Positions 8,407 to 17,780 of a stretch of 64,000 nt of DNA are shown here, piece by piece. The stretch lies in IMG/VR virus record IMGVR_UViG_3300030099_006944, positions 1 through 64,000 of that record; one strand, written 5' to 3'. Positions within the stretch are counted from its first letter, which is position 1. Each line of letters opens with the position of its first letter. The notes beneath the pieces are model-generated. The model saw only the letters and a program-made list of their open reading frames with translations, was not told where the DNA came from and ran no database searches. The DNA comes from a virus. The position numbers and the translations under genes are program-made.

Positions 8407-8868
8407 ATGTCAAAAGATATGAAGCTGATAATGGAAACGTTTCGAAAAAACGTCGTACAAGAAAAAGAAGAATTGCAGACGGTTGGTGCCGTTTTAAGCA
8501 TCATACAGAAATTCCGACAAGCGAAAGCAGGTGGTGAGGCAGGCAAAAAAGCACTCGAAATGACCATTGAGCAAATTCCGATCGTTAGTAATATATGGAG
8601 CATCGTGAAGGGCGCCAAAGAAGCCAAAGATATGATCTCTACTCTATATGGGATGGATGATAAATTCCAGAGCAATACCGGACTAGACAAGCTTAACATC
8701 GATGATAATATTTCAAAGATAGTCGACGACAAAGTGGAGGCAGCGTTTTTAAATTTTTTAATTGACAAATTAGGAAAAATGAATCCAGACGCACCAATGC
8801 CAGACGCGTCGATTGAAATTCAAGATTTTTTAGCTAGCAAATTTGATCAACATACGATAAAAAAATAA
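8407..8868 (+). CDS. Putative virion-internal protein, MSKDMK-tag family
   Basis: N-terminus MSKDMKLIMETFRKNVVQE nearly matches ORF 25464. Confidence 0.65.
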   Translation: MSKDMKLIMETFRKNVVQEKEELQTVGAVLSIIQKFRQAKAGGEAGKKALEMTIEQIPIVSNIWSIVKGAKEAKDMISTLYGMDDKFQSNTGLDKLNIDDNISKIVDDKVEAAFLNFLIDKLGKMNPDAPMPDASIEIQDFLASKFDQHTIKK

Positions 8869-9323: not shown

Positions 9324-9856
9324 GCAAAAGAAAAAGTCAATGGCCGTCACAATTTTCGCCGGTAAAACCATGGGAGTCGTTTTTGGTATATTTCGACAAA
9401 GGAGCAAAGGCTCCGCCCATTCCACCTAGGATGGTTCGAATAAAAGGAAGCATTGACGTACGTCACACTCTTAACCTTAAAAAAAATTATCAACAAAACA
9501 ACGTAATCATTGATATTCAGGTCGATAACATCACCCCTGATGGTAGACACACTCCCGTTGATATGTGGCTTAACGTTAGTGGTTACAACATAGAACCCGA
9601 CCCCGATGGGAAGTATATCGATATCGATGCATGGGTTCTCAAAAACAAAGGGATTTCCGATGACTTTGGTAATATCCTTGACCGTCAAGGAAAACTTGTT
9701 GCAACAAAGAAACAACAAAACAAATGGTCGGGCGTTCCAACGCACACTCCTAAGCCTCCGCAAAAACAAACTGATTCTAGCGGTAATATCATGGAAGGAC
9801 TTACCAAAGAGAAGTTGCACAAACTAATTGAACAGGTAATGAGAGATTTGAAATGA
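9320..9856 (+). CDS. Hypothetical protein with C-terminal tag-like helix
   Basis: Ends EGLTKEKLHKLIEQVMRDLK. Confidence 0.6.
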   Translation: MSKRKSQWPSQFSPVKPWESFLVYFDKGAKAPPIPPRMVRIKGSIDVRHTLNLKKNYQQNNVIIDIQVDNITPDGRHTPVDMWLNVSGYNIEPDPDGKYIDIDAWVLKNKGISDDFGNILDRQGKLVATKKQQNKWSGVPTHTPKPPQKQTDSSGNIMEGLTKEKLHKLIEQVMRDLK

Positions 9857-12027
9857 AGCTTAACAAAAAATATTTGTTCGGGCTGATAATGGAAGCCTTG
9901 GAAGACGATGGTTTATCAAACGAAGAGCGTCAAGATTTTTTCGCGAAAGCAATGGATCTTGCCTCTGTTGATTGGCCAAGTGTACAACAAGCATTAGAAT
10001 TAATTCAATACGTTAATTTTGACGAAAAACAAATGCAAGCTCTTAAGAGCACCATGGAAGATACAATTTTAGGCGCGAATGGGCCCGACGAACCCGGACC
10101 GGCTTTAAAAGAATTAGGCTTTGATTTTCACCAAATTTTTCAAAACGAAATGGGGTTTCGTCCTCCGGAAGGAGAGTTCGAACTAAAAAACAAAATCTTT
10201 TCTCTTCGGGCTAACCCCGGCGGTAATCGAATGGAGTTTGAATTTTATTTTGATCAACAAGGGCCGCTAGCGATAGAGCCTTTCTTTCATTTCAAAAGCC
10301 CTCTTCAACCATATGATGGCTATGTCGGAATGGACATGGACAGAGAGATCACTTTTTCTGCTGGCTCTGCTCGAACCTTTGGTGCTGATGAGATTACAAT
10401 ATCCAAGAGAGAGTTGCCCGGAAGACTTAGAAAAGCTATGGGTTTTGGTCCGGATGAGGACATCCCGGGATGGCCCGGATTACCGAAGGGATCGGCGCCA
10501 ACCATAAACGAAAACCAAGGGAATCTAGGATTCTCTACTGCTGAGGAGTTCGAAGAGTGGTTGTACTCCGAGTATATGAAGGGTGCAAAATATTTTAAAC
10601 AAGGTGCTGGGAACTTTAATCATGGTGAGTTTAAAAAGGTCATCAAAACTTTTTTAAATATCGAATGGAGACCTGCTAACAAAAGACCTTGGAAGGAACA
10701 CTCTATTCATGAACCTTTTGCGGCATATAGATTTATTGAAGAGGCTGATCACATGTTTCCTTTTATATGGCGTCTTTTAGGTCATGATAGGAGCCACAAG
10801 AGACCCGACGGGAAATCGTACGGATGGCAAGGAAGTAACTGGGAGGATAGGTATTATAGATTAAGGCATTCTTCTGAGCATCCAATAATTAAACGATTAC
10901 AAGACCTTGCAAAAAAGATGATGAATGCTCTTTCTTTTTCTAGTAGACAATTACCTACATTTAAAAAAGCGCTTGGCTTGAAAGAGTCCGGTAAACAAAA
11001 ATTAAATAAAGATTATTTGTTTCATATGATCAACGAGGTTCTTCGCGAAGACGAAGAAGAGCAAGAACCGATCGATATCTTAAAAGATAAAATTGAAAAC
11101 GTCATCAAACTAAAAGATTGGAGCTACTATGTCCAATTTTTTGAATTGATCGATACTTTCGAAGATAGCGCTTTAATAGAAAAGGAAGAGGCTAACGCAC
11201 TTCGCGAAAGGTTGTGGGGAGCCGTCTGGTTTTTAAAAGTTTATGATCGCGATAACTTGGATGAAGTTGCTGAATTATTTTTAACTCACAAAAACCTTCC
11301 GGAAGACACCAAAGAAGATATTCACTCTTCCATTTATTATTATGGTGGATATTTTAGGGATACCGAATGGACTCTCAAGTATGTGGCTAAATCGCTTGGA
11401 TTAAATTTGAAGATTGAAGCCATTGATCCTGATAATTTGTATGAACTTAGTGGCGCTGATGGAGATGATTTAGATAAGCTTAAGGATCACTTGCTTGAAT
11501 TGGGTGAAGAAGAGAAATACTTTGAGGTGTATCCTGAGACCGGAGGTCTGTTGTTTGGTGTGTTAGCAAAACCTTATGTCAACTTTGAGAAGAAAATAGA
11601 GGAAATTTTTGGCGCAACGCCGAGCGGCGATCCTATGATGTCTGGTGGTTCTATGATGACCGTCTCGATAAGGAAATCGATCGATGAACCTTTTGAGGCT
11701 CCGATGGTGAAGGGCAGTAAAGTAACAGCAGATATAATGTTTGAGTGGAGTCCGGAGACCGAGTATGGAATGGAGATCACTCTTCTTCCTGCTAAATTGG
11801 GAACTACACCACAAACATTGCTTGATGAGTATTATGGAATCTGGGTGAGTGTTGCACAAGAGGGTCCTAATATCGGAAAACTTGAAATTGGAATTCAAAA
11901 TTATGAGGATGAATTTGCGGACCACAAACAGGTTCAGAACAAAAACGGAACTTACGGATTTACTGTTGAAGAAATGAAAGACAAAATCAAAGAAATAACT
12001 GGAATTGACTTAAATGAAATTAACTAA
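9853..12027 (+). CDS. Large tagged protein with two modules
   Basis: MKLNKKYLFGLIME at the N-terminus and KLNKDYLFHMINE internally. Confidence 0.7.
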   Translation: MKLNKKYLFGLIMEALEDDGLSNEERQDFFAKAMDLASVDWPSVQQALELIQYVNFDEKQMQALKSTMEDTILGANGPDEPGPALKELGFDFHQIFQNEMGFRPPEGEFELKNKIFSLRANPGGNRMEFEFYFDQQGPLAIEPFFHFKSPLQPYDGYVGMDMDREITFSAGSARTFGADEITISKRELPGRLRKAMGFGPDEDIPGWPGLPKGSAPTINENQGNLGFSTAEEFEEWLYSEYMKGAKYFKQGAGNFNHGEFKKVIKTFLNIEWRPANKRPWKEHSIHEPFAAYRFIEEADHMFPFIWRLLGHDRSHKRPDGKSYGWQGSNWEDRYYRLRHSSEHPIIKRLQDLAKKMMNALSFSSRQLPTFKKALGLKESGKQKLNKDYLFHMINEVLREDEEEQEPIDILKDKIENVIKLKDWSYYVQFFELIDTFEDSALIEKEEANALRERLWGAVWFLKVYDRDNLDEVAELFLTHKNLPEDTKEDIHSSIYYYGGYFRDTEWTLKYVAKSLGLNLKIEAIDPDNLYELSGADGDDLDKLKDHLLELGEEEKYFEVYPETGGLLFGVLAKPYVNFEKKIEEIFGATPSGDPMMSGGSMMTVSIRKSIDEPFEAPMVKGSKVTADIMFEWSPETEYGMEITLLPAKLGTTPQTLLDEYYGIWVSVAQEGPNIGKLEIGIQNYEDEFADHKQVQNKNGTYGFTVEEMKDKIKEITGIDLNEIN

Positions 12028-12751: not shown

Positions 12752-12777
12752 CCCCCTATTTACTTATATAAGGGGGG
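12752..12777 (+). promoter_or_regulatory. RBS-sequestering hairpin containing CTATTTA
   Basis: CCCCCT (12752-57) pairs with AGGGGG (12771-76) just before ATG 12785. Confidence 0.45.
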
Positions 12778-12784
12778 CTTATGA

Positions 12785-14368
12785 ATGTGGTTATTGGGAA
12801 TTTTATTTGCGTGTAATGACATAACACTAACAAAAGTACAGGATCCAGAGCCTGAAATTGTGGTTTTGCCGGAGATTATTGACTTTGGCAACATAAGGTC
12901 AGGAGAAGAGACTGGTGTAGAAGAATTAACTATTGTAAATGCAGGGGACGAAGTATTATTGCTTAGTCCCTTGAATCTTATTGCGGGTAATCACCGTTTC
13001 AGCATTGATCATGATGAAACAGAAGATTGGGAGTTACAACCCGGAGAAGGAATTCAAATTGATGTCTATTATGAGCCTCAAACATATGAGAGTAATGGTG
13101 GCCTCATAGAAGTCGTTTCTAACGACGATGAGAGCCCTCAGATTGAAGTTTTAGTTCTCGGCAAGGGTGATGCCCCTGTAATGACTGTCGAGCCAATCTC
13201 GTACGATTATGGGACGATTTCAATGGGCTGTGATAATGAAGAAAGAATCACTATTAGAAATGATGGCAACTTGCCTCTCACTGTTGATAGTGTATCGCAA
13301 ATGGTAACACAACCGGTTGATATCATTATGGAATTTGGTTCTCTACCTCCGCCACCTTGGGTTCTCGACCCAAATCAAGAAGTTGACTTTCTAGTTTCTT
13401 ATATTCCATCCGATGTTGGGCTGGATGAAAGTTCTATCACAGTTATTGGTGATGACCCTCAAACGCCAGAAGTAGAAGTTAGACAATTAGGTGATGGAGT
13501 AATAGAGCAATACATAATACAAACTCACGTACAAGAAGAGATTGCAATCTTAGACATTGTTTTTGTTATTGACAATTCTGGTTCGATGAATGTCTTTCAG
13601 CAACAGTTAGCTTCTCAAATGACTTCTTTCATGAATGTTTTTCTTGCCAGTGGTGCTGATTTTCATATGGGCTTCATCACAACTGATCGCGGTTTTTTAC
13701 AATGCAGTGGCGTAATTTGTTGGATTGACAATACCTCCGCTAATCCAGTCGACTGGGCTCAGGGAGTAATATCGCAAATAAATATTGGAGGGTCTGCTGT
13801 TGAGAAAGGTATTGAAATGGCCAAAAGATTTTTTGAGAATACGAATTATGATAATGGTGGTGCCCCCGGAACTTCTTTTTGGAGGAACGATTCTACTACG
13901 GTTGTAATTTATGTATCAGACGAACCTGATTTTAGTATTGGTGGCTGGTCTGCTTATACATATTTTTTCGACACACTAAAAGCTGATGTTGATATGATGA
14001 GGCATTTTGCTGTGATTGGAGATTATCCTTCCGGTTGTGGTTTTCAGTTTGGCGGTAATTTCAGAAATATTCAATTTGGATCAGGATATTGGGATATGAC
14101 TCAACGTTATAACGGAGACTGGTATTCGATTTGTGCAACAGATTGGGGTAGTCAAATGCAAGACCTAGCAAACACTGTTACTATTAGAAGCACATTTCCA
14201 TTAGACGAACCAGATCCGATCGAATCTTCTATCATAGTCAGTGTTAATGGTCAAGTGGTTACTGGTTGGCAATATGACTCCATAAGCAATTCTGTTGTCT
14301 TCAACGAAGATTCCATTCCGGAGTCTAGTCAAACCATTACGATCGAATATGGTATCTGGGGATGCTAA
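12785..14368 (+). CDS. Putative lipoprotein: two Ig-like (ASH/choice-of-anchor D-type) domains plus VWA
   Basis: MWLLGILFA-C lipobox-like; repeats PEIIDFGNI..LTIVNAG and PISYDYGTI..ITIRNDG; LDIVFVIDNSGSM MIDAS. Confidence 0.75.
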   Translation: MWLLGILFACNDITLTKVQDPEPEIVVLPEIIDFGNIRSGEETGVEELTIVNAGDEVLLLSPLNLIAGNHRFSIDHDETEDWELQPGEGIQIDVYYEPQTYESNGGLIEVVSNDDESPQIEVLVLGKGDAPVMTVEPISYDYGTISMGCDNEERITIRNDGNLPLTVDSVSQMVTQPVDIIMEFGSLPPPPWVLDPNQEVDFLVSYIPSDVGLDESSITVIGDDPQTPEVEVRQLGDGVIEQYIIQTHVQEEIAILDIVFVIDNSGSMNVFQQQLASQMTSFMNVFLASGADFHMGFITTDRGFLQCSGVICWIDNTSANPVDWAQGVISQINIGGSAVEKGIEMAKRFFENTNYDNGGAPGTSFWRNDSTTVVIYVSDEPDFSIGGWSAYTYFFDTLKADVDMMRHFAVIGDYPSGCGFQFGGNFRNIQFGSGYWDMTQRYNGDWYSICATDWGSQMQDLANTVTIRSTFPLDEPDPIESSIIVSVNGQVVTGWQYDSISNSVVFNEDSIPESSQTITIEYGIWGC

Positions 14369-14874
14369 CCCGTCATTATAGGTGGTGGCTAATTCTTTCT
14401 GGAATTGTTGGGTTTATTTTGGGGGTGACCTTGAAAATTGCTTGGGAAGAGAGTCAGTTTATCTTAGCCGAATGGGAAGAAGACCCTATCTTAGTTATAT
14501 GTCCTGATAGTCATTTGACCAATTATCGCGTTAGTAAAGCGGTTGAATGGTGGGGAATCCGCGGATATAATATTTCATATGTGCACTGGGACAGGAGCAA
14601 CGAAATATGTTCCAACACTTGGTCACAAGGAATGATTTTGGTTCGAGGCCAAGGCGAGTTACTGCCTGATACCTATGCTATCACTTCTAGATTAACAATT
14701 ATCAACAAAATGATTTCTGCTCAAATCATACTTCCAAACGATCGTAAATTTATGCCCAGATTGTTAGAACACGAACTAGGTCACGCTTTTGGTATGAAGC
14801 ATGTAGAGAAGATTGGACACATAATGCACCCAATACATGAGCAAGGCGGAGAAAAATTTTGGATTCCAGATTAA
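14362..14874 (+). CDS. Membrane-anchored matrixin-type (metzincin) protease
   Basis: N-terminal TM; HELGHAFGMKH; Met-turn HIMHP. Confidence 0.8.
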   Translation: MLTRHYRWWLILSGIVGFILGVTLKIAWEESQFILAEWEEDPILVICPDSHLTNYRVSKAVEWWGIRGYNISYVHWDRSNEICSNTWSQGMILVRGQGELLPDTYAITSRLTIINKMISAQIILPNDRKFMPRLLEHELGHAFGMKHVEKIGHIMHPIHEQGGEKFWIPD

Positions 14875-14888
14875 CATTTACCTCCAAA

Positions 14889-14904
14889 CTATTTATTGTG
14901 AGGT
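14889..14904 (+). promoter_or_regulatory. Candidate late promoter/RBS 16-mer
   Basis: CTATTTATTGTGAGGT, identical to 25210-25225. Confidence 0.55.
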
Positions 14905-14911
14905 GGAAGTA

Positions 14912-16513
14912 ATGAAGATTCGGATAATAAAAGAAGTTATAAGTAAGAGCGGTGACAAGTGGGTTGTGAAATCAAAAAAGGGAAAGACCCTAGGCACACA
15001 TGATTCTGAAACAAAAGCAAAAGCACAATTGGCAGCCATCGAGGCTAGCAAGAATGAAGAACAATTGGAAGAAATTTCTTCTGTTGGCAGTGGTGCTGTT
15101 CAAGGTTATGGAGCTCCGCTAGGTAGTAAAAAAGACAACGAAGAATTCAATGAAAGTGAAAAACAAGCCTCTAAACTCAAAGGAAAAAAATTAGCAGAAA
15201 TGTTTTCTTCCTCGACACAAACAGGTGGTTTGCGAATTAGTATCGTACGGGGAGAAAAAGAACATGCTGGTCATGTAGAAAGAGCCAGACACCAAGGTCT
15301 CAGAAACGTAATGAAAGAAGATGATGATGCTACTTTACCTATGGATGACAGCACTAGGCCTTTACCTGATGCTAAACCAATCCCTGTACCTCGTGATCCA
15401 GTGGAAGTCATGTTGGAGAAAAACGGATATAAGCTCAAAAAGAAACTAGGAGAAGGACAGTATGGAGTTGTTGTTCTTGCTACTGAGATTGACGAATATG
15501 GTGGTCACAATTTCGCTATTAAGATCTTAAAGAAGACTGGTGGAGAAGCTATAGCACGTGAAGTTAGAAACTATCGAGAGATATCTAGTGCTCGCGATAA
15601 AAACCCGGTAATTGCAAAGCATTTTCCAGAAGTCTTTAAGATATTTGAAGAAGAGGGGAACACTTTTATTGTAATGGAAGTATTGGAGCCTCTGCATGCT
15701 GAATTGAAGGGGATTTTTAGCGGAGTTGAACAGATTATGCATAAACAAAGACCTATGATGGCGCCGAATTGGCCAATCTCACAATTTGACAGCGACAAAG
15801 ATGTATCAAAAAGAGTTGAAATGATGTTGGATGACTCTAAGCAGATTGCTAATCTGATTGATGTTGTTAAAAGGAGACTACTAACGTATTCTACTGAGTA
15901 TAATAAAAAAATAGAACCACAAGTTTTAAAAGATATAGAGACCGCTATAAACCCAAGTGTATTCGCGAACTTCCGGAGTGTGTCTAGAAAAGAAGCTAGT
16001 CAAAAAGTCAATCGGTTTAACGACCAAATTTTAGATTATCTTGGCGGGGCGGCAGGAATTTACTCATCTATCATGACTGATATGAAGAATTCTCCTGCTA
16101 GTCAAGTTTTTGTCACATTGATGTGCAAAAAGATTATAGAAATAATGAAACGTTATACCCCACAAGGTGACAACGTCAAAGATTTTACTGAATTTATCGT
16201 CAAGCCCTTCTTGGAGCGGTTCCAAAAACAATATAGGATGTCAACTTCTCTCAAAGGTGGCTATTCCCAATCAGATATTGGCAAAGAAGGAGGCAGAAGA
16301 GATGATGCTGAGAGTATCTTTCAAGCAATTATGGGCCTTCAAAAAGAAACAGGGTTGTTTGCTCGCGATTTACACGACGGAAACGCAATGAGAAGGCCGG
16401 ATGGTGACATTGTAATAGTAGATGTTGGAATGTTTAAAACAGACACTGAACTAAATCAAATGAAAAAAGGAAAACTCCGGGAAAACCGGATCAGAATCAA
16501 AATAAAACGTTGA
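14912..16513 (+). CDS. Tagged protein with Ser/Thr(Tyr) protein kinase domain
   Basis: LGEGQYGVV; FAIKIL; helix-C E (AREVRN); IVMEVL; RDLHDGN; IVDVG. Start chosen after the GAGGT RBS. Confidence 0.8.
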   Translation: MKIRIIKEVISKSGDKWVVKSKKGKTLGTHDSETKAKAQLAAIEASKNEEQLEEISSVGSGAVQGYGAPLGSKKDNEEFNESEKQASKLKGKKLAEMFSSSTQTGGLRISIVRGEKEHAGHVERARHQGLRNVMKEDDDATLPMDDSTRPLPDAKPIPVPRDPVEVMLEKNGYKLKKKLGEGQYGVVVLATEIDEYGGHNFAIKILKKTGGEAIAREVRNYREISSARDKNPVIAKHFPEVFKIFEEEGNTFIVMEVLEPLHAELKGIFSGVEQIMHKQRPMMAPNWPISQFDSDKDVSKRVEMMLDDSKQIANLIDVVKRRLLTYSTEYNKKIEPQVLKDIETAINPSVFANFRSVSRKEASQKVNRFNDQILDYLGGAAGIYSSIMTDMKNSPASQVFVTLMCKKIIEIMKRYTPQGDNVKDFTEFIVKPFLERFQKQYRMSTSLKGGYSQSDIGKEGGRRDDAESIFQAIMGLQKETGLFARDLHDGNAMRRPDGDIVIVDVGMFKTDTELNQMKKGKLRENRIRIKIKR

Positions 16514-16538
16514 CAAATAGCAAAAAACGTGTTATAAT
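16510..16538 (+). promoter_or_regulatory. Consensus sigma70 promoter
   Basis: TTGACA-17nt-TATAAT with extended TG. Confidence 0.8.
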
Positions 16539-16556: not shown

Positions 16557-17780
16557 ATGAAAGAATTATTGGATAAAATGAAAAAATTAAATGAAAATAA
16601 AAATGGAAAAGTTGTTACTTTTGATTTTGATAATACAATCATAAAGTCATATGAAGATTCTAACGATGGCGAAGAGACAATTTACCAATATGGTGGTAAA
16701 AATCCACAAATTATTGCAAGAATCAAGAAATTTAAACAGGCTGGTTCGACAGTGCTGATAGTAACAGCAAGAACACATGCCCTTGAAGTACCAGAAAGCT
16801 CTGTTCAAAACATGTTGGCTAAATACGGTATCGAAGTGGACGGCATATTCTATACAAATGGAGATAAAAAGGCCAAAAAGCTTTATGAACTAGGATCTAC
16901 TCTTCATTATGACGACGACCCTGCTGAAAGAGAAGCCATTGAGGCTTATAGAAAACTGCATCCTAATGATATTGTGGTAAAAGATCCCGACAAACTAGTC
17001 AAAGATATCGATGAAATCTCCAAAGGTTTGATCATGACCACTGATGGTAAGTATATCATAGCCCAAAGGTCAGATTCATATGAATGGGATGCTCCCGGTG
17101 GACATCTTATGGAAGGAGAGGAAGCAAATTACGCTTTTTATCGTGAAGTTTTAGAAGAATTGTCTTTAAAAGTAAAGAAAGTTCAGTATATGTCATCCCT
17201 TAACACCACTTGGAAAAAGAAAAACAAGTTGGTTCATTATTTTATAGCACAAGTTCCTCACTCTTCTGATGAATTAGAGGGGATTGTACAGTTACAATGG
17301 GAAATTGCTGATTATTTTTGCGGAGATCTAGAAGAAGTGATGGAAAAGATGGGAGAAGGGGCAACACAAAACCTAAAAAACACCATAGGTTTCCTAAATG
17401 AGTCTGATTTGATGCTTGAAAGAGCATGGCCGCACTCTAATAATCATTCTACAAAGAAAAGAAGACTAGTCGGAACAGGAATCAACAAACACACAGGTGG
17501 CGGTGATGCTAAAAACGTTGAAGACCACAGTAGATCAGACAATGCACCGGTTGGATATGGTGTTTTCGAAGAATCTAACGAAAAAAAAACTAAAAAAATA
17601 AAAATTTCTATCGTTTCTGATCTCGAAGAAAGAAGAAAGAAGCGAAAAAAACGTAAAAAACGTAGAAAAAAGAGAAAATACACTAAATCCAAAGGTATCG
17701 GATGGCCATATGGTGATTGGAACATTGGAAGTTTAGGTGATAGTAGCGATGGAGGCGGCGATGGTGGCGGCGGAGAATAG
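16557..17780 (+). CDS. HAD phosphatase-Nudix hydrolase fusion with polybasic tail
   Basis: FDFDNT, VTAR, K, HYDDD (HAD motifs I-IV); Nudix box GHLMEGEEANYAFYREVLEELSL; RRKKRKKRKKRRKKRK. Confidence 0.8.
   Translation: MKELLDKMKKLNENKNGKVVTFDFDNTIIKSYEDSNDGEETIYQYGGKNPQIIARIKKFKQAGSTVLIVTARTHALEVPESSVQNMLAKYGIEVDGIFYTNGDKKAKKLYELGSTLHYDDDPAEREAIEAYRKLHPNDIVVKDPDKLVKDIDEISKGLIMTTDGKYIIAQRSDSYEWDAPGGHLMEGEEANYAFYREVLEELSLKVKKVQYMSSLNTTWKKKNKLVHYFIAQVPHSSDELEGIVQLQWEIADYFCGDLEEVMEKMGEGATQNLKNTIGFLNESDLMLERAWPHSNNHSTKKRRLVGTGINKHTGGGDAKNVEDHSRSDNAPVGYGVFEESNEKKTKKIKISIVSDLEERRKKRKKRKKRRKKRKYTKSKGIGWPYGDWNIGSLGDSSDGGGDGGGGE

Follow-up and report, generated by a model that had tools for sequence, protein, structure and literature searches.

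The stretch of DNA analysed here (the window) comprises 64,000 nucleotides (nt), the first 64 kb of IMG/VR virus record IMGVR_UViG_3300030099_006944, a 187,355-bp record rated complete. It belongs to an uncultured marine T4-like phage whose genes lie nearly all on the plus strand, and which is present in marine metagenomes of several studies. Our subject is one gene of this window, whose product (P0001) combines a kinase-like catalytic core with an N-terminal extension, a helical bundle set ahead of the catalytic loop, and candidate protease sites toward both termini (Table 1). An alternative longer frame from 14837 runs into the upstream gene, and the N-terminus common to the homologues begins at 14912, so we took the latter position as the start of the kinase.

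Table 1. Features of the kinase locus, followed by promoter-like motifs and leader-bearing genes elsewhere; positions are those of the window unless G000 (the whole genome) is named, and residue numbers (aa) are those of P0001.
Feature	Position	Strand	Remarks
Kinase gene	14912..16513	+	533 aa plus stop; protein P0001
Shine-Dalgarno GAGGTGG	14900..14906	+	Ends 5 nt before ATG at 14912
Leader, aa 1-8 (M-K-I-R-I-I-K-E)	14912..14935	+	IxE site at its end
Small beta-beta-beta-alpha domain, aa 9-50	14936..15061	+	phrog_3684; DUF2188-like
LxE site and capsid-maturation-site-like stretch, aa 52-66	15065..15109	+	Resembles the phage's own major capsid protein
Conserved module, aa 55-145	15074..15346	+	Second conserved LxE (aa 94-96), conserved helix (aa 114-135)
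Kinase N-lobe, aa 163-258	15398..15685	+	Glycine loop 180-185, K204, alphaC E217, hinge 255-258
Helical bundle, aa 261-463	15692..16300	+	Between alphaD and alphaE equivalents; family-wide
alphaE equivalent, catalytic loop (D486, H488, N491), Mg loop (D504-V-G506)	16301..16441	+	
Last helix, LxE site (aa 522-524), 9-aa basic alternating tail (aa 525-533)	16442..16510	+	Candidate C-terminal propeptide
Lipoprotein-like gene with Ig-like (HYDIN/ASH/DUF1573) and VWA domains	12785..14368	+	First gene of three-gene unit 12785-16513
Matrixin-like small protein gene	14362..14874	+	Overlaps end of VWA gene, directly before kinase
CTATTTA	14889..14895	+	16 nt before kinase ATG; candidate late promoter element
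CTATTTA	12756..12762	+	22 nt upstream of first gene of three-gene unit
CTAWTTA examples	25210, 57082, 24027, 46693		
Perfect sigma-70-type promoter (TTGACA, 17 nt, TATAAT; TG before -10)	16510..16538	+	-35 hexamer contains kinase stop codon
Third-motif sites	836, 2588, 3149, 4041; G000 175980-186970		
Common-leader open reading frame starts	8881, 9853, 12014, 18244, 31481; G000 85306, 91285, 91894, 94696, 102031		

The motifs of a protein kinase lie where an earlier, sequence-only reading of this DNA had placed them. The hinge M-E-V-L spans aa 255-258 (nt 15674-15685) and the catalytic loop R-D-L-H-D-G-N aa 485-491 (nt 16364-16384), with 227 residues between the two (about 225 had been estimated) as against roughly 45 in canonical kinases. 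Conservation was assessed over 75 aligned relatives at about 25% identity. Here, the glycines of the glycine-rich loop (G180, G182, and G185), K204, and E217 are either invariant or conserved to at least 90%, while D486, N491, D504, and G506 are invariant, the Mg motif reading D-V-G or D-L-G in the family; none of the 75 members has lost K204, E256, D486, or D504. The His of the HRD motif is replaced by Ala in P0001. In profile searches, Pfam Pkinase (PF00069) covered the N-lobe alone (aa 173-259, profile positions 1-81) and scored 30.9 bits against a gathering threshold of 31.7; it matched 62 of the 75 members (E < 0.01), always over the N-lobe. Moreover, a profile of the family reached solved protein kinases, down to E 2e-13. 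The proposal that this is a kinase with all its catalytic motifs is thus backed by motif conservation and profile matches, and by the fold described below. Because the ATP-binding and catalytic residues are near-invariant across so divergent a set, we consider it highly probable that P0001 is an active, atypical member of the protein-kinase-like superfamily.

Relatives of near-equal length in metagenomic databases number 65, and among 50%-identity representatives there were 261 matches at E <= 1e-3 and 86 at 1e-10. The neighbours in the ESM Atlas are exclusively viral, and one BFVD entry matches the kinase (E 1.8e-19). A tblastn search against cultured phages yielded 64 records, all for the small N-terminal domain (aa 6-63), with no homologue of the kinase among them, and the kinase family is, so far as known, confined to uncultured phages. 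Within the phage genome itself, there is neither a second copy of the kinase or of its module nor an ART homologue.

In the AlphaFold2 model of P0001 (mean predicted local distance difference test score, pLDDT, 85.8; above 90 over most of aa 155-520), a canonical N-lobe is followed by nine helices (aa 263-443) and then by an alphaE-like helix. The catalytic loop comes next, with two short strands, the Mg loop, and one final helix after it. Single rigid superpositions on kinases cover both lobes, with Z scores of 11-13, 140-175 residues aligned, and a root-mean-square deviation (rmsd) of 3.0-4.8. For instance, the superposition on ULK4 gave a Z of 12.9 and a rmsd of 3.6 for 146 residues, and that on PknB a Z of 10.9 and a rmsd of 3.0 for 145 residues, with model residues 164-511 lying on chain residues 3-163. 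Since these superpositions include the N-lobe and the catalytic core alike, the model points to a kinase-like assembly of the lobes, which was the structural check that the sequence-only reading had proposed.

The wide spacing between hinge and catalytic Asp recurs in 75 of 75 members (median 232 residues, range 160-267). What follows the DFG-equivalent Asp is correspondingly brief, amounting to 29 residues in P0001, with a family median of 30 and a minimum of 7 (some members having 7-11), and all but about nine of the 75 relatives lack nearly everything after the DFG equivalent. Across the 75 members, the activation segment, the APE motif, and helices alphaF-alphaI are absent from this region, where the model has a single helix. 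As both the long gap and the short post-DFG tail are family-wide, we conclude that these elements are genuinely missing and that the bundle is ancestral to the family; with no activation segment, the enzyme is proposed to be constitutively "open". When the C-lobe was modelled by itself (pLDDT 90.7, predicted template modelling score 0.87), only the stretch of about 50 residues from alphaE to DFG matched kinases. The bundle alone, compared with 48,161 solved chains, gave a best Z of 6.0 to designed or generic helical bundles, and no kinase C-lobe or other family stood out, though weak Z scores are hard to interpret for a domain that is wholly helical. A Foldseek search with the full model also returned kinases, with template modelling scores that were low owing to the bundle. 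A circular permutation, in which alphaF-alphaI would have moved ahead of alphaE, found no support from a sequential aligner. We therefore read the bundle, as modelled, as the body of the C-lobe, replacing the normal rear half. Accordingly, of the earlier description of a kinase split by a large insertion, the spacing stands, but the notion of an add-on insert does not, since the bundle occurs in every member and the post-DFG C-lobe is missing. The substrate-recruiting role that had been suggested for this helical region is pure conjecture.

Ahead of the kinase domain, the first 170 residues contain, as the sequence-only reading had noticed, a small module and several LxE sites. The domain at aa 9-50 matches phrog_3684 (profile E 4.9e-14; Pfam DUF2188 reached just 12.2 bits against a threshold of 22), and five (L/I/V/M)xE sites lie at aa 6-8, 52-54, 94-96, 134-136, and 167-169. 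The consensus leader of the family is 11-13 aa long with LxE at its end, and the aa 9-50 domain is a clade-specific insertion into it. Elsewhere, this DUF2188-like domain forms separate small open reading frames (ORFs) close to tRNA genes of cultured Salmonella and Vibrio phages. Among metagenomic proteins (examples P0158 and P0177), the 489-aa P0158 carries three tandem copies, and a coiled-coil protein carries the domain at its C-terminal end.

The candidate cut sites recur at both termini of the family. In 28 of 29 members, an (L/I/V/M)xE lies within 6-13 aa of the N-terminus, and the 27 homologous loci all begin with a comparable leader. The sites equivalent to aa 52-54 and aa 94-96 are each found in 28 of 29 members as well, as is a C-terminal (L/I/V/M)xE located 9-22 aa from the end and followed by a basic alternating tail similar to the leader at the N-terminus. 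As a separate observation, the HAD-Nudix protein encoded downstream has, at about aa 347 (window 17590-17650), an internal alternating basic stretch of K-I-K-I type followed by LEE and a polybasic run, reminiscent of the termini of the kinase.

Residues 52-66 of the kinase resemble residues 57-71 of the capsid protein of this phage, and the composite pattern occurs in just these two of its 207 predicted proteins. The resemblance was first noticed by eye, with a profile test made afterwards as an unbiased check. A 20-position profile of the site segment in the kinase family ranked the capsid protein first in the phage proteome (E 0.041), and the same profile matched residues 59-74 in all five capsid proteins tested, at best with 6e-5. 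The capsid protein was not among the hits when the phage's own proteome was searched for aa 45-75 with blastp-short, whose default matrix is PAM30. The matched position in the capsid protein is the sole LxE in the interval homologous to the segment of T4 gp23 that holds a known cut, after Glu65 (PMC9026906), and is thereby the predicted maturation site of the major capsid protein of this phage. The phage encodes both a gp23-type capsid protein and a gp21-type prohead protease (G000 101418-102026; Peptidase_S77, E 2e-35), and a Peptidase_S77 prohead protease was present in each of the five related records tested.

In this phage, at least ten unrelated proteins share a near-identical leader of about 16 aa that ends in I-x-E (M-K-L/I-T-K-x-x-L-x-x-I-I-x-E-E-L type), and one of their ORFs directly follows the prohead protease gene. 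A looser second type (M-K-L-I/L-x-E-x-F/W-R-K) is seen in the ORF at 8419 and in several kinase homologues elsewhere. Another of the common-leader genes, a 724-aa ORF (9853-12027), has a second internal copy of its own leader at aa 383 (near nt 10999); its halves align over 51 residues (37% identity, E 8e-4), which suggests a tandem duplication or a polyprotein of tagged cargo in two parts.

The segment at aa 47-140 is not tied to the kinase. Together with the basic tail it stands alone as a 111-aa protein, and elsewhere it follows an ART-like domain, precedes an unrelated 170-aa domain, or forms part of ART-like-module-kinase fusions. The label "ART-like" refers only to how the R, S-T-S, and E-x-E motifs are ordered, and the domain had no match in Pfam, PHROGs, or PDB sequence searches. 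According to genomic contexts taken from IMG/VR scans for the module-bearing metagenomic proteins, the kinase lies directly downstream of the VWA lipoprotein-like gene in about 20 contigs, in most of them with the HAD-Nudix gene downstream. In contig L053, the slot between the VWA and HAD-Nudix genes is filled by the gene for the 170-aa domain, and in L054 an ART-like gene directly follows the VWA gene. One slot downstream of the VWA gene thus holds three types of cargo (kinase, ART-like, and 170-aa domain) with the leader and module in common. By analogy, this polymorphic locus, with its cargo varying behind a conserved front end, appears to mirror the internal-protein loci of T-even phages. 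As for the matrixin-like gene in front of the kinase, its product has an N-terminal membrane helix and an HExxHxxGxxH zinc site (Peptidase_M10, E 2.4e-4), and the gene is kept only in L053, which is the closest relative.

Upstream of the kinase, the CTATTTA heptamer belongs to a motif, CTAWTTA, that is strand-biased throughout the genome, with 54 copies on the plus strand and 13 on the minus strand. Half of the plus-strand copies (27 of 54) lie no more than 60 nt upstream of a start codon, a zone that makes up 6.3% of positions, and in most of these the distance is 16-24 nt. The motif precedes (16-40 nt upstream) the tail sheath, tail tube, and adaptor-like genes, the kinase, and many others. 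Of 27 homologous kinase genes in other phage contigs, whose proteins are only about 30% identical, 20 have it upstream as well, and CTATTTA lies upstream of both alternative cargo genes (L053 and L054). CTAWTTA is, on this pattern, a candidate late-promoter element of the phage group, and the kinase is probably co-regulated with the structural genes. Two other late signals were considered and rejected. The T4 late promoter TATAAATA is not enriched (8 plus, 14 minus) and does not precede structural genes, and CTAAATA is not enriched either. Many kinase homologues (L013-L029) and the kinase of the window (14874-14882) have a longer element, ACAWTTACC, 6-11 nt upstream of their CTATTTA; in the homologues it lies about 50 nt ahead of the gene. 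With only three copies in the genome it was discarded as a general element, and it could be a gene-specific regulatory site or reflect mere relatedness of the contigs.

A second class of promoters, of sigma-70 type (TTGACA, 16-18 nt, TAnnnT), precedes mostly DNA-metabolism genes. Its perfect copy at the 3' end of the kinase gene is predicted to serve the HAD-Nudix gene and to mark the end of the kinase transcription unit, and the two regulatory classes adjoin there within 30 nt. A weak sigma-70-like site at 14543-14571 was set aside, as it lacks the extended form of the phage's sigma-70-type promoters. A third motif, GATACAT-n-TATAACCC(A)AA, is found 17-20 nt before the starts of small genes at both ends of the record and is probably the earliest promoter class.

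The fold, the conserved catalytic residues, the architecture common to the family, the motifs, and the synteny are computational results, and from them we infer when the kinase is expressed, and its packaging, cleavage, injection, and substrate class. In the scheme that we favour, the kinase would be produced together with the structural proteins, under the CTAWTTA motif. Its N-terminal cassette, made up of the leader, the capsid-maturation-site look-alike, and the module, would carry it into the assembling prohead. There, the gp21-type protease would trim it after Glu54, probably Glu96, and Glu524, and so at both termini, as with T4 Alt. Ejected along with the DNA, the kinase would then phosphorylate host proteins before any phage gene is expressed, with host takeover or anti-defence as the effect, in function like T4 Alt and T7 gp0.7. 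The earlier suggestion of a protease-matured, injected kinase gains indirect support here from several independent lines, namely the protease, the upstream motif, the bracketing LxE sites, the likeness to the capsid site, and the swapping of cargo. Nevertheless, our confidence differs among the parts. Packaging in the head with trimming by the protease has, in our judgement, slightly the better of the balance, whereas injection followed by action on host proteins is put forward more tentatively, at somewhat short of even. For the explanation as a whole (an active atypical kinase that is head cargo, trimmed, and injected), we regard the balance as level.

Several observations weigh against this scheme. 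At 16 nt from the ATG, CTAWTTA would place a transcript start about 6 nt downstream of it within the ribosome-binding site, and because it lies so close, the motif may be no promoter, or no classical -10 element. It also precedes some genes outside the structural block, and no RNA run was listed for the locus. Several (L/I/V/M)xE sites fall inside the folded kinase, and a conserved Glu may serve other roles. In the strongest competing explanation, a late-acting kinase stays unpackaged in the cytoplasm of the producing cell, where it acts on assembly, lysis timing, or host metabolism, and the leader and LxE sites have other functions. In its favour, the kinase leader is unlike the one common to at least ten other proteins of the phage, the similarity to the capsid site is short, was spotted first by eye, and is marginally significant in the phage's own proteome, and packaging is itself inferred. 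On the other hand, an (L/I/V/M)xE is present at both termini in 28 of 29 members, the cassette is common to other cargo in one polymorphic slot, homologue L030 bears the common leader type of the phage, and a gp21-type protease is encoded by all carriers tested. On balance we think this explanation unlikely, at roughly half the weight that we give to the packaged, injected kinase.

The substrate presents a further difficulty. In the D-x-H-x-x-N catalytic loop, the invariant His488 stands where Ser/Thr kinases have a Lys, a trait of small-molecule and lipid kinases, and the substrate may therefore not be a protein. An enzyme of the APH, choline-kinase, ABC1, or PI3K type, acting on a small molecule, lipid, sugar, or nucleic acid, and packaged or not, would also fit the lack of an activation segment and of a peptide-binding alphaF-alphaG platform. 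Weak matches to ABC1 (PF03109) were obtained in 18 of the 75 members, the one in P0001 being confined to aa 466-510 and reaching 15.1 bits (threshold 22.9). However, protein kinases provide the best matches in both profile and fold, the APH profile matched none of the 75 members, and D-x-H-x-x-N is used by PIKK-type protein kinases too, so we judge a non-protein substrate improbable, more so than a kinase that is never packaged. Far less probable still is a pseudokinase or a purely structural internal head protein. While the highly unusual C-lobe and the Pkinase score just below threshold might suggest one, the residues for ATP binding and catalysis are all invariant or close to it in the family. 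Finally, a recent mobile insertion (an intein or inserted domain) in a canonical kinase would account for nothing beyond the unusual spacing and can practically be dismissed, as the region of about 200 aa has a similar length in all 75 relatives, is wholly helical and confidently modelled as one unit with the catalytic core, and would, if excised, leave an incomplete kinase because the canonical post-DFG part is absent.

Extending the packaged-kinase scheme beyond this one phage, we tentatively propose, with rather less than even confidence, that marine T4-like phages use a modular head-delivery cassette to load interchangeable enzymes encoded at one polymorphic slot, with the protease freeing the cargo at both ends. 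As proposed, the cassette consists of the leader, the capsid-maturation-site look-alike, the module of about 90 aa, and often a basic C-terminal tail, and its cargo is the kinase, the ART-like domain, or the 170-aa domain. Under this proposal, P0001 would be the first virion-delivered protein kinase of a phage and would represent a new kinase family with a C-lobe bundle before the catalytic loop. If true, the principle of T4 Alt, whereby injected enzymes act before phage genes are read, would be extended to protein phosphorylation, and a swappable delivery cassette would be defined in marine phages that are both abundant and uncultured. From sequence alone, it could then serve to predict further injected effectors, and it might load foreign proteins into capsids, as the T4 targeting leader does. 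Moreover, the family would illustrate that the catalytic core of a protein kinase can work with a wholly different C-lobe topology, which bears on constitutive kinase activity without an activation loop.

Among known systems, T4 Alt is the nearest in the proposed delivery and T7 gp0.7 in chemistry. In T4, a 10-residue targeting leader loads the internal proteins and Alt into the prohead, gp21 removes this leader, and Alt is cut at both termini (PMC3012670; PMC9026906). The system of the kinase resembles that of Alt and the internal proteins IPI-IPIII in having a T4-type prohead protease, a short leader ending in (L/I)xE, candidate cuts at both termini, an enzyme as putative cargo that presumably acts when infection begins, and a polymorphic locus with a constant front end (PMC3012670; PMC9026906; PMC5512222). 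It differs in that the predicted cargo is a kinase rather than an ADP-ribosyltransferase or a restriction inhibitor, and in that the leaders are unrelated to that of T4 and belong to a far longer cassette (about 145 aa) with a capsid-maturation-site look-alike.

The T7 kinase (T7K, gp0.7), an early product, comprises about 242 aa and, beyond these, a shut-off domain, and it has DPV where other kinases have DFG (PMC13645617). Like P0001, it is a phage protein-kinase-like enzyme without classical regulation, plausibly for host takeover or anti-defence. The match of P0001 to the gp0.7 profile (phrog_15752) covers aa 470-518 only, or 49 residues with the catalytic and Mg loops (E 1.6e-5). Unlike T7K, P0001 has a D-V/L-G motif, no shut-off domain, and a 200-aa bundle before the catalytic loop, and where the T7 gene is early, the kinase gene lies behind the motif of the structural genes and not a sigma-70-type promoter. 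Of the likeness to gp0.7 drawn in the sequence-only reading, a weak local profile match is thus retained, but membership in that family is not, given the lack of the DPV motif and the shut-off domain.

In the PDGFR, KIT, and VEGFR receptor kinases, the kinase insert lies between alphaD and alphaE. These split kinases, and SRPK/Sky1p with its spacer, likewise have a large segment that interrupts the kinase domain, in the receptor kinases at the same position as here, and the longest structural alignments of the model were with SRPK, CLK, and DYRK kinases (about 170 aa, Z 11-12). However, their post-DFG C-lobe is complete, and their inserts are flexible and not needed for the fold, whereas the bundle of P0001 is ordered, conserved, and stands in for the C-lobe. 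Minimal kinases such as Shigella OspG, Rio, Bud32, and archaeal ArkI share the lack of an activation loop and have little after the Mg loop; ArkI (7vnx) was matched at a Z of 11.0, and OspG (4q5h) matched the alphaE-to-DFG piece. Still, these are domains of 200-280 aa in which no large helical bundle separates the hinge from the catalytic loop.

The nearest published idea to a DNA-delivered kinase of this type is that of the "polyvalent protein" kinases of phages and plasmids, which lack the C-terminal subdomain and were predicted to be delivered together with the DNA (Iyer, Burroughs, Aravind et al., 2017; PMC5512222). In common with P0001, they have lost the C-terminal subdomain, kept the active-site residues, and are predicted to travel with DNA, and stand-alone versions exist (PMC5512222). 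They sit in giant multidomain proteins of (pro)phages of Verrucomicrobia, Chlamydia, and Bacteroidetes, and their signatures are an insert that separates the catalytic His from the Asp, a Glu preceding strand 2, and a Gln in the final strand of the N-lobe (PMC5512222). Set against that description, P0001 shows no evident signatures of the polyvalent kinases, with no insert seen in its catalytic loop and no conserved beta5 Gln. Based on the comparison with T4 Alt, T7 gp0.7, and the polyvalent and receptor kinases, we regard P0001 as an unusual form of atypical kinase and as putative T4-style head cargo.

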